A stretch of 64,000 nucleotides of DNA from a virus, in the IMG/VR virus record IMGVR_UViG_3300047312_000028, positions 32,001-96,000 of that record. One strand, written 5' to 3'. The notes below the pieces were generated by a model. That model saw only the letters and a program-made list of their open reading frames with translations. It did no database searches and was not told the DNA's origin. A program made the position numbers and the translations under genes. Below are positions 1 to 2,087 of the stretch, piece by piece. Positions within the stretch are counted from its first letter, which is position 1, and each line of letters opens with the position of its first letter.

Positions 1-246
1 ATTCAGTTAAGATCAAATTGGGACGAATATAAGCATTGTGTGATGGGTGGGCTTCTTTACCAGAAGTTTTCAGAAGAACCTTTTAGGGGACTACTATTAG
101 CAACTGGGGATCAAGAGTTGATTGAAGGAAATCATTGGGGAGACACCTATTGGGGAGTTTGTAAAGGTGTCGGTGAGAATTGGCTCGGCAAAACAATCAT
201 GCAAGTTCGAGATAAATTAAAAGAAGAGTTATCGCTCCTTAAGTAG
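1..246 (+). CDS. NADAR/YbiA family protein, C-terminal part (5' truncated by the window edge)
   Basis: Frame 1 is open from base 1: LRSNWDEYK..VM..LL.QKF...LLATG.QELIEGNHWGDTYWG...GENWLGKTIMQVR, the NADAR signature. Stop TAG 244-246 lies inside tRNA-Thr. Confidence 0.9.
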   Translation: MQLRSNWDEYKHCVMGGLLYQKFSEEPFRGLLLATGDQELIEGNHWGDTYWGVCKGVGENWLGKTIMQVRDKLKEELSLLK

Positions 247-310
247 AGGTAGTTGACACGCCACTTTGGTAAAGTGGAAACGGTTGGTGCAAGTCCAACA
301 AGGAGCTCCA
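234..310 (+). tRNA. tRNA-Thr(GGU)
   Basis: Acceptor GCTCCTT/AAGGAGC, anticodon arm CCACT-TTGGTAA-AGTGG, T arm GTTGG-TGCAAGT-CCAAC, encoded CCA. Weak D stem. Confidence 0.85.
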
Positions 311-317
311 GTAGAAC

Positions 318-392
318 GCACGATGGGCAGGAAAGATATGCACCACTCCTACAAAGTGGACTAAGAAGGGGCAGTACCTTCATCGTGCACCA
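318..392 (+). tRNA. tRNA-Val(UAC), atypical
   Basis: Acceptor GCACGAT/ATCGTGC, anticodon arm CCACT-CCTACAA-AGTGG (C33), T arm GAAGG-GGCAGTA-CCTTC, A73 plus CCA. Confidence 0.75.
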
Positions 393-448
393 TATGTACA
401 GCGGGTATGATAACGATACCGGTAAATAATTGCTGTGCAGAAATATAT

Positions 449-526
449 GTCCTTGTGGGGAAGCCTGCAAATCCCGCCTCCCTGCGAAGGAGGAGATCGG
501 TGGTTGAAATCCACCCAAGGACACCA
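449..526 (+). tRNA. tRNA-Arg(GCG)
   Basis: Acceptor GTCCTTG/CAAGGAC, D stem GGGA/TCCC with A20, anticodon arm CCTCC-CTGCGAA-GGAGG, T arm GGTGG-TTGAAAT-CCACC, CCA. Confidence 0.9.
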
Positions 527-530
527 GTAT

Positions 531-606
531 GCAGTCGTGACTAGAGAGGCCATAGACCCGGCTCTTAACCGGGACCACGTGGGTTCGATTCCCACCGACT
601 GCACCA
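531..606 (+). tRNA. tRNA-Lys(CUU)
   Basis: Acceptor GCAGTCG/CGACTGC, anticodon arm CCCGG-CTCTTAA-CCGGG, canonical TTCGATT T loop, CCA. Confidence 0.92.
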
Positions 607-611
607 GCGAC

Positions 612-686
612 GGACCGCAAAATTTAGTAGATGATTACCTGGCTTTTAACCAGGGGAACCGGGTGCAATTCCTGGGCGGTCCACCA
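612..686 (+). tRNA. tRNA-Lys(UUU)
   Basis: Acceptor GGACCGC/GCGGTCC, anticodon arm CCTGG-CTTTTAA-CCAGG, T arm CCGGG-TGCAATT-CCTGG, CCA. Confidence 0.88.
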
Positions 687-690
687 GTTC

Positions 691-764
691 GCTCCCATAG
701 ATTATCAGTAGATCGCTAGATTCTCAATCTAGAGAGCCGGGGGCAGCACCCGGTGGGAGCACCA
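691..764 (+). tRNA. tRNA-Glu(CUC)
   Basis: Acceptor GCTCCCA/TGGGAGC, anticodon arm CTAGA-TTCTCAA-TCTAG, T arm CCGGG-GGCAGCA-CCCGG, CCA. Confidence 0.85.
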
Positions 765-774
765 TACGAGGGTA

Positions 775-835
775 GTGTGTGAGTCGGATTATGCCGGGTG
801 CGCACCCGTTGAGGTTCGACTCCTCTTTCATACAT
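775..835 (+). ncRNA. tRNA-like or degenerate tRNA element (T arm present, no anticodon loop, no CCA)
   Basis: Closing stem GTGTGTGAG/TTCATACAT (with G-U pairs), hairpin CGGGT-GCGC-ACCCG, T arm GAGG-TTCGACT-CCTC. Confidence 0.45.
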
Positions 836-852
836 TGCCTGACTAGAAATAT

Positions 853-928
853 CTCTCTGTACGTCAACTGGAAGACTACCTCGCTTCTAACGAGGAGGAT
901 GGGGGTTCAAATCCCTCCAGGGAGACCA
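853..928 (+). tRNA. tRNA-Arg(UCU)
   Basis: Acceptor CTCTCTG/CAGGGAG, anticodon arm CCTCG-CTTCTAA-CGAGG, TTCAAAT T loop, CCA. Confidence 0.92.
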
Positions 929-933
929 GTAAC

Positions 934-1001
934 GTGCCCTTCAAGTTCAAAGCTTGCGAATCCCGAAAGGGAAAGTGACTGAATAAGTCGAGGGCGCTCC
1001 A
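934..1001 (+). ncRNA. CCA-ended tRNA-shaped RNA lacking an anticodon
   Basis: Acceptor-like stem GTGCCCT/AGGGCGC followed by T and CCA. Three arms: CAAG-TTCAAAG-CTTG, TCCC-GAAA-GGGA (GNRA tetraloop), GAC-TGAATAA-GTC. Confidence 0.6.
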
Positions 1002-1021
1002 AATTCATTATGGAGATTTTT

Positions 1022-1327
1022 ATGTCGATGCGTAATGAAGTCTACTATTATAGTGGCACAGATTGCATGGGGAATCCCTATTCAACCTGGCAACAGTATA
1101 GAATTTGTTCCGATGGTAGAGGCGTCATAGGAGTCGGTGCCACCGCAGAACAGGCAGTTGCAGAAACCGACAAATTGGTTCAAGAGCGAGAGACGTACCT
1201 AGCCAAGTCAGATGTAGAGCGTTTGGCGATTCTTTTGGAGAATGAAAATTTGCTCCAAACGGACATGAACGAAACCGTGCATCTTATCGGAAAGATATTG
1301 TTAGAGAAATATGCCGTCGTAGTTTAA
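1022..1327 (+). CDS. hypothetical protein
   Basis: GGAG RBS before ATG 1022 (in-frame alternative start at 1010). Stop TAA lies inside tRNA-Arg(CCU). Confidence 0.7.
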   Translation: MSMRNEVYYYSGTDCMGNPYSTWQQYRICSDGRGVIGVGATAEQAVAETDKLVQERETYLAKSDVERLAILLENENLLQTDMNETVHLIGKILLEKYAVVV

Positions 1328-1389
1328 CTGAACAAAACGACCCTCTCCTAAAGGGTAGACTGCGGGTTTGAGTCCCGCCGGTGGCACCA
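1313..1389 (+). tRNA. tRNA-Arg(CCU)
   Basis: Acceptor GCCGTCG/CGGTGGC, D stem GTTT/AAAC, anticodon arm ACCCT-CTCCTAA-AGGGT, T arm GCGGG-TTTGAGT-CCCGC, CCA. Confidence 0.9.
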
Positions 1390-1399
1390 TGAGGATATT

Positions 1400-1765
1400 A
1401 TGATTTTCGTGTTCGGCTCGAATCTTGCAGGCAGACACGGGAAAGGTGCTGCACTCTTTGCTCGAAAAAACTATGGAGCAAAACTCGGTGTTGGTCGTGG
1501 GCGCACTGGTAACGCATATGCGATTCCTACTAAAGACGCTGATTTGAGACCCCTGGCTCTTTTGCAGATAGAACGAGAGGTCAATGATTTCCTCTCTTAT
1601 GCAATCGCGCACATGGATGAAAAATTCTTAGTGACTAAGATCGGATGTGGATTAGCTGGGTATACGAACGAACAGATTGCTCCCTTCTTTCACGATGCCC
1701 CTGTGAATTGTTTAATCGACGAAGAGTGGCAGAAGATTATAGGAGATTTTGATAACTCCCTGTGA
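1400..1765 (+). CDS. A1S_2505-family, macrodomain-like phage protein
   Basis: Motifs IFVFGSNLAGRHGKGAA, YAIPT and VTKIGCGLAGY. GAGG RBS. Stop TGA lies inside tRNA-Arg(UCG). Confidence 0.8.
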   Translation: MIFVFGSNLAGRHGKGAALFARKNYGAKLGVGRGRTGNAYAIPTKDADLRPLALLQIEREVNDFLSYAIAHMDEKFLVTKIGCGLAGYTNEQIAPFFHDAPVNCLIDEEWQKIIGDFDNSL

Positions 1766-1833
1766 TGACAATTGGAAGTCACCGTGGTTTCGACCCACGG
1801 AACATGCAGGTTCGAGTCCTGTCAGGGAGACCA
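1756..1833 (+). tRNA. tRNA-Arg(UCG)
   Basis: Acceptor CTCCCTG/CAGGGAG, anticodon arm CGTGG-TTTCGAC-CCACG, TTCGAGT T loop, CCA. Confidence 0.9.
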
Positions 1834-1846
1834 GTTAGAGGTGAAT

Positions 1847-2023
1847 ATGTTTTGGCATGGTTGTCGTGGGTGTGGATGGATGACAGAACCTAACGTGGCA
1901 GGTGTGATGACAAACCGCGATAGTCGCTGTCAATTCTGTAACTACTTTCCTGTTTCGGTTTTTGATGGAACAGCAGAAGAACACGAAGATATGAGAAAGA
2001 ACGGGCTAATAGAGGACCCTTAG
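1847..2023 (+). CDS. small zinc-ribbon protein (58 aa)
   Basis: GAGGTG RBS before ATG 1847. CxxC (CRGC) and CxxC (CQFC). Stop TAG falls at positions 8-10 of tRNA-Val(GAC). Confidence 0.7.
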   Translation: MFWHGCRGCGWMTEPNVAGVMTNRDSRCQFCNYFPVSVFDGTAEEHEDMRKNGLIEDP

Positions 2024-2087
2024 TTCATTAGCAGAACACTGCTTTGACATGGCGGAGAGACAGGAGCGTAACCTGTAGGGTTCACCA
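2014..2087 (+). tRNA. tRNA-Val(GAC)
   Basis: Acceptor GGACCCT/AGGGTTC, D stem GTTC/GAAC, anticodon arm CTGCT-TTGACAT-GGCGG, T arm ACAGG-AGCGTAA-CCTGT, CCA. Confidence 0.88.

Follow-up and report, generated by a model that had tools for sequence, protein, structure and literature searches.

Stop codons of small genes lie inside the following tRNA in the tRNA island of a large phage, probably as a consequence of tight packing

In the stretch of viral DNA analysed here (the window; 64,000 nucleotides, bases 32,001-96,000 of the 176,325-bp virus record IMGVR_UViG_3300047312_000028, complete by CheckV and of 45.6% G+C), each of the four protein-coding genes that directly precede a tRNA gene has its stop codon inside that tRNA. 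The feature is real and somewhat enriched in this phage, which is T4-like as judged from a gp23 fragment and late-type TATAAATA motifs. It is best explained, with a probability of about 0.65, by tight packing of the kind found in mitochondria, in which the stop triplets that a tRNA itself contains are used opportunistically; stop-less fragments left by RNase P cleavage would then likely arise as a side effect of the packing and would not be what it serves. A previous interpretation made without database searches (the sequence-only reading) had proposed that tRNA maturation could act as a timer or switch for these genes, and had added the caveat that genome compaction making use of TAG or TGA at tRNA positions 8-10 could produce the overlaps by itself. 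The caveat is the better explanation. The four junctions lie at the 3' end of a 10.4-kb tRNA island (genome 23,662-34,087), which has all of its features on the plus strand and holds about 36 tRNAs (28 called by ARAGORN, more with Rfam), a tmRNA, an RNase P RNA and about 17 small open reading frames (ORFs). For the genome as a whole, a crude ORF tiling gave about 93% coding sequence, with about one third of same-strand neighbours overlapping.

The coordinates of the four overlaps were confirmed from the ORF list together with the ARAGORN and Rfam tRNA assignments (Table 1). The NADAR gene ends with TAG at 244-246 (positions 11-13 of tRNA-Thr(GGU), an overlap of 13 nt), ORF1022 with TAA at 1325-1327 (positions 13-15 of tRNA-Arg(CCU), 15 nt), the phrog_2072 gene with TGA at 1763-1765 (positions 8-10 of tRNA-Arg(UCG), 10 nt), and the zinc-ribbon ORF with TAG at 2021-2023 (positions 8-10 of tRNA-Val(GAC), 10 nt). 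A cut by RNase P at tRNA position +1 would remove each stop together with only three or four codons, the residues of which (SLLK, AVVV, NSL and EDP) had been read correctly; this part of the earlier interpretation is sound, and the timer or switch is unsupported.

Across the whole island, ten junctions between an ORF of at least 50 amino acids (aa) and a following tRNA were counted, with overlaps of -88, -68, 0, 1, 10, 10, 10, 10, 13 and 15 nt (negative values being gaps). The whole stop was within the tRNA at six of the ten, so that the claim of an overlap for every ORF before a tRNA holds for the window (4/4) but not for the island. One further junction overlapped by 1 nt and one was flush, and genes abutted or overlapped the tRNA 5' end without a spacer at 8/10 junctions. 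The 1-nt overlap belongs to a 75-aa ORF, whose stop TAG (genome 25714-25716) shares only its G with position +1 of tRNA-Leu(GAG) and would be left as ..UA by the cut. The sole flush junction involves a tRNA-Pro that offers no early stop in any frame (read-in of 22 nt, 72 nt or none), and here the upstream gene has a stop of its own. Junctions with the two other structured RNAs were similarly close, a 213-aa ORF ending 1 nt before the tmRNA and another ORF running 3 nt into the RNase P RNA. All six whole-stop overlaps were at most 15 nt long, and the overlapping ORFs used the shortest read-in frame in 5/7 cases and the longest frame in none.

To place these figures, 238 viral loci were collected by way of phrog_2072, metallophosphoesterase and NADAR homologues, and these loci yielded 135 non-redundant ORF-to-tRNA junctions. 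Their distribution had its mode at -1/0 nt and a secondary peak at +10; 21% overlapped by at least 1 nt, and the whole stop was inside the tRNA in 25 (18.5%). A T stood at -1 in 74% of array tRNAs; among the junctions with a 1-nt gap it did so in 12/13. This agrees with the known preference of bacterial RNase P and accounts for the junction mode at -1. The expectation was taken from a three-frame read-in null, built from 728 tRNAs, and from cross-array frequencies; a plain shuffle was not used because it is not meaningful for the position at which an ORF ends. A stop was reached within 15 nt in 37% of the null frames and not at all in 30%, and TAG, TGA or TAA occupied positions 8-10 in 60% of the 728 tRNAs. 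Overlapping ORFs were in the shortest read-in frame in 24/36 cases (p = 4e-5), and flush ORFs were depleted for frames in which the tRNA gives an early stop (24% versus 37% in the null). Stop triplets at positions 8-10 were not enriched in tRNAs preceded by an ORF (54% versus 60%), and adaptation of the tRNAs to supply stops was rejected on these figures.

Orthologous junctions in relatives (loci designated by L numbers) changed state readily. That between the phrog_2072 gene and tRNA-Arg(UCG) was found in five states: an overlap of 10 nt with TGA in the focal phage, of 10 nt with TAG in L251, of 23 nt in L258, L259 and L264, a flush end (0 nt) in L260, L261, L003 and L004, and -17 nt in L252. 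An out-of-frame TAA at 1753-1755 in the focal phage is flush with position +1 of this tRNA, and the same TAA serves as the stop in the flush relatives; an 8-nt length difference was placed just upstream of it by MAFFT. The phrog_2072 proteins vary in the length and sequence of their tails after a conserved Trp, and the protein tails encoded by tRNA sequence were unconserved and beyond the family profile. The ORF1022 homologue in L240 also ends within tRNA-Arg(CCU), in another frame (10 nt versus 15 nt). Scans of the viral collection revealed no relatives of ORF1022 or of the zinc-ribbon ORF, and a large protein search returned one for ORF1022 and only itself for the zinc-ribbon ORF. An 83-aa ORF runs 10 nt into tRNA-Leu(CAA) in both the focal phage and L251, the two ORFs being 65% identical. 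Metallophosphoesterase genes of the closest subfamily run into tRNA-Ser (+21), tRNA-Met (+10) or tRNA-Gln (+10), or are flush, while those of the other subfamily end 1-7 nt before the tRNA. For NADAR and tRNA-Thr no orthologous junction was found, 77 of 81 NADAR homologues being without a tRNA within 150 nt downstream; NADAR stops do lie inside other tRNAs in two unrelated contigs. The sequence-only reading had held that relatives ending these genes before the tRNA would speak against it, and here the outcome was mixed: overlap is common and recurrent in the clade, yet its position, frame and stop codon are not fixed.

Two further observations were made in these loci. In an unrelated viral contig (L203:2899-2974), the TAG of a NADAR homologue lies within a tRNA with the anticodon CUA, which is of the amber-suppressor type. 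In L240 (208-212), an ORF begins with an ATG whose A is also the last base of the CCA encoded by tRNA-Arg(UCU), and zero-spaced packing therefore occurs on the 3' side of a tRNA as well.

Under the proposed explanation, the island is a co-oriented, tightly packed block of tRNAs, tmRNA, RNase P RNA and small accessory genes, akin to mitochondrial 'tRNA punctuation', in which each RNase P substrate has a gene butt-jointed to its 5' end, most commonly in the form stop codon, U(-1), tRNA +1. The flush stop would sometimes be lost through small indels or point changes, after which the frame would continue to the first in-frame stop in the tRNA, mostly the universal U8-A9-G10. Such short read-in would be tolerated because the few added residues fall outside the conserved protein core. 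The RNase P cut at +1 would end the upstream message, as in secG-leuU of Escherichia coli, and ribosomes caught on cut messages would lack a stop and need ordinary rescue by the host or phage tmRNA. Judged from the sequence, a message would become non-stop only where the cut comes before translation has finished. The stretch just before the first tRNA (genome 23132-23573) carries a sigma-70-like promoter, which is strong (11/12, with extended TG), together with TATAAATA and a hairpin of 13 bp that resembles a terminator; in the island region, a strong site of this type, TATAAATA and such a hairpin were found only upstream of the first tRNA, and promoter consensus matches within the island were not in excess over shuffles. 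The stretch before the first tRNA may control the whole island.

Three known systems offer a comparison. In secG-leuU, as described by Mohanty and Kushner, RNase P cuts once, at tRNA +1 and thus 14 nt past the end of the secG stop, and the secG mRNA has a half-life below 30 s after the cut, compared with 17 min for the uncut, terminator-less secG-leuU co-transcript in an rnpA49 mutant (PMC2241853). The likeness, here read from sequence, is that of a protein gene directly before a tRNA on one transcript with one cut at +1 separating them; the difference is that the secG stop lies 14 nt upstream of the cut, whereas in the phage the spacer is zero or negative and the cut would remove the stop. 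The tRNA punctuation model of Ojala, Montoya and Attardi for animal mitochondria (reviewed in PMC8601606 and PMC4394434) shares with the island a co-oriented polycistronic block, tRNAs that flank messages, and genes butt-jointed to tRNA 5' ends or overlapping them. The TAG at genome 25714-25716, with only its last base in the tRNA, resembles the incomplete stops of mitochondria. There, the 3' ends of messages are set by tRNA excision, while for the phage, processing is suggested by the layout; the phage is moreover a bacterial virus with an RNA-based RNase P, and has whole stops 8-15 nt inside tRNAs in place of truncated stops completed by polyadenylation. In coliphage T5 (NC_005859; RefSeq annotation), four stops of coding sequences lie 6-24 nt inside tRNAs (T5.057, hegD, hegC and T5.069) and one junction, that of T5.065, is flush. 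T5 differs in having internal promoters, homing-endonuclease genes as the upstream partner in two of its four overlaps, a lower share of overlaps than the focal phage, and a tRNA region annotated without RNase P RNA or tmRNA. Because T5 shares these overlaps, the processing of such messages could be examined directly in E. coli, for which rnpA, ssrA and arfA/arfB mutants exist. Literature searches covered phage tRNA punctuation, ORF/tRNA overlaps with non-stop consequences and phage RNase P RNA, and turned up neither a description of this arrangement nor a paper on phage RNase P RNA.

Table 1. Positions in the window of the junction genes, their tRNAs and other features discussed in the text
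Feature	Position	Strand	Basis or remark
NADAR gene, 3' part	1..246	+	Pfam PF08719, 3e-14; phrog_1017; gene start at genome 31812, upstream of the window
tRNA-Thr(GGU)	234..310, including encoded CCA	+	RF00005 match 234-307; not called by ARAGORN
Run of tRNAs without intervening ORFs	449..928	+	Arg(GCG) 449-526, Lys(CUU) 531-606, Lys(UUU) 613-690, Glu(CUC) 691-764, Arg(UCU) 853-928; ARAGORN and Rfam
ORF1022, 101 aa, function not assigned	1022..1327	+	GGAG 8 nt before ATG 1022
tRNA-Arg(CCU)	1313..1389	+	ARAGORN; RF00005, 59.7 bits
phrog_2072 gene, 121 aa ('macro-like' ORF of the sequence-only reading)	1400..1765	+	phrog_2072; no Pfam match
tRNA-Arg(UCG)	1756..1833	+	ARAGORN; RF00005, 41.1 bits
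Zinc-ribbon ORF, 58 aa, CxxC...CxxC, orphan	1847..2023	+	GAGGTG before ATG (good ribosome-binding site)
tRNA-Val(GAC), last tRNA of the island	2014..2087	+	ARAGORN; RF00005, 43.1 bits
GGQ protein, stand-alone, RF-1 domain	8532..8936	+	two genes downstream of the RtcB gene
ClpP protease	13594..14238	+	Pfam PF00574, 5e-30

Several observations weigh against tolerated packing, and most of them would suit a selected coupling, in which stops are retained in tRNAs so that RNase P makes stop-less messages, the products of which either receive an ALAA tag from the phage tmRNA and go to ClpP for degradation or leave the ribosome untagged through the GGQ protein, with tRNA maturation timing the shut-off of the genes. 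One and the same phage carries an RNase P RNA (bacterial type A, genome 31495-31797, about 300 nt, 176.6 bits), a tmRNA (genome 28445-28796, 83.6 bits, not called by ARAGORN, with a tag frame ending in the canonical degron ..EFALAA), ClpP and the GGQ protein, a set that would fit a purposeful system. Both RNAs are in the island and upstream of the window, the RNase P RNA by about 200 nt, so that there is more processing and rescue machinery than the sequence-only reading saw; the GGQ protein and ClpP that it did name were borne out by their domain matches (Table 1). Whole-stop overlaps are about three times as frequent in the focal phage (6/10) as in the other phage arrays (25/135; Fisher p = 0.007, a post hoc value that is generous because the window was picked for the overlap trait), and among the small set of closest relatives roughly every second junction overlaps (3/3 in L258, 2/2 in L251, 1/2 in L240 and 0/3 in L252). 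At two junctions (ORF1022/tRNA-Arg(CCU) and 83-aa ORF/tRNA-Leu(CAA)), the focal phage shares the overlap with a relative although the orthologous ORFs are only 58-65% identical, and the ORF1022 pair is saturated at synonymous sites; given these two retained junctions, there may be some lineage-specific retention of overlaps. Tolerated packing also supposes that ORFs and tRNAs are co-transcribed and that the proteins are translated from the uncut primary transcript before cleavage. Even so, a selected coupling is unlikely. Orthologous junctions flip between overlapping, flush and spaced forms, the length, frame and stop codon of the overlaps vary, the encoded tails are unconserved, the shortest read-in is preferred, the tRNAs are not adapted to provide stops, and T5 is alike, all of which leaves a timer or switch unsupported. 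Higher overlap in phages encoding RNase P RNA was not seen either: 49 other large viral records included four (L241-L244) in which this RNA was above its family cut-off, and these four had ordinary overlap rates (2/6 and 2/7, which are small numbers). In secG-leuU the retained stop does not rescue the cut message, and the position of the stop would add little to timing because cleavage ends the message with or without it. As for release of untagged products, the GGQ protein scored 25.1 bits against the ArfB model NCBIfam NF006718 (cut-off 100) and 51 bits against PrfH (cut-off 167), its best matches being to domain 3 of RF1/RF2, and its C-terminal tail is only moderately basic; by these scores it is not a demonstrated ArfB. 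In the window, the gene order at 7115-8936 is RtcB RNA ligase (7115-8290), a 101-aa ORF and the GGQ protein, and the RtcB and GGQ pair resembles the RtcB-PrfH ribosome/RNA repair pair more than ArfB. Messages of the arfA type are alike in that RNA processing takes the stop codon off the message. ArfA is itself a tiny basic rescue factor, and truncation is its regulatory logic; the overlapping genes of the phage are, in contrast, ordinary accessory enzymes, and a scan of all island gaps found no ORF with a K+R fraction of at least 0.3 running into a tRNA.

Competition could also run in the reverse direction, with ribosomes that terminate 8-15 nt into a tRNA keeping its acceptor and D arms unfolded, so that translation would delay tRNA maturation and tie the supply of four Arg isoacceptors, Val, Gln, Leu and Thr to translation. 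A terminating ribosome extends roughly 12-15 nt past the stop codon, and all of the overlaps have their stop in the first 15 nt of the tRNA, so that tRNA folding and termination would be mutually exclusive on one transcript. However, a ribosome at a flush stop would cover the same tRNA bases and an overlap would not be required, and the tRNA identities involved differ between relatives, which makes this explanation rather improbable. It is more improbable again that the overlaps are an artefact of annotation, with some of the ORFs not being genes or ending elsewhere. Such an artefact would agree with the zinc-ribbon ORF (1847-2023) having no homologue beyond itself (in PHROG, only a weak phrog_9414 match with E = 0.007) and with tRNA-Thr being missed by ARAGORN. 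The NADAR, phrog_2072 and metallophosphoesterase genes, however, belong to clear families, and ORF1022 is a real gene because comparison with its sole homologue (58% identical) gave pN 0.27 against pS 0.82, that is, purifying selection. All four junction tRNAs are above the Rfam cut-off, with matching acceptor strands and CCA; tRNA-Thr scores 42 bits with RF00005, for which the cut-off is 29, over the full model (1-71; E = 7e-7) and has the acceptor pairing GCTCCTT/AAGGAGC (7 bp) with TCCA directly after it. There is no suppressor tRNA in the phage genome, and recoding is thus not supported.

If the processing of phage tRNA islands follows the pattern that their layout suggests, an entire class of messages from phage accessory genes would owe its 3' ends to RNase P. 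At least a fifth of these messages would lose their stop on cutting and would, throughout infection, keep producing stalled ribosomes from within. This would provide a simple rationale for the tmRNA and release-factor-like genes of large phages. For genome annotation, the result speaks against the trimming or rejection of ORFs that run 1-25 nt into a tRNA.

Some minor features of the region were also recorded. A search of the phages collection at the DNA level with window positions 1-6000 as query returned short unrelated matches only. Three stretches between tRNAs (311-448, 765-852 and 929-1009) were without assignment; within the second there is a T-arm-like GAGGTTCGACTCCTC, and at 933-1003 an acceptor-like 7-bp pairing is followed by TCCA, neither ARAGORN nor Rfam calling a tRNA in either place. 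Elsewhere in the island, a 116-aa ORF (genome 29980-30330) has a Tat-type signal and, over a short length, also matches the N-terminal part of gp23, the major capsid protein. Directly 3' of the last tRNA, at 2126-3052, lies a gene resembling the TPP-binding beta subunit of 2-oxoacid:ferredoxin oxidoreductase, which is preceded by CATAAATA.

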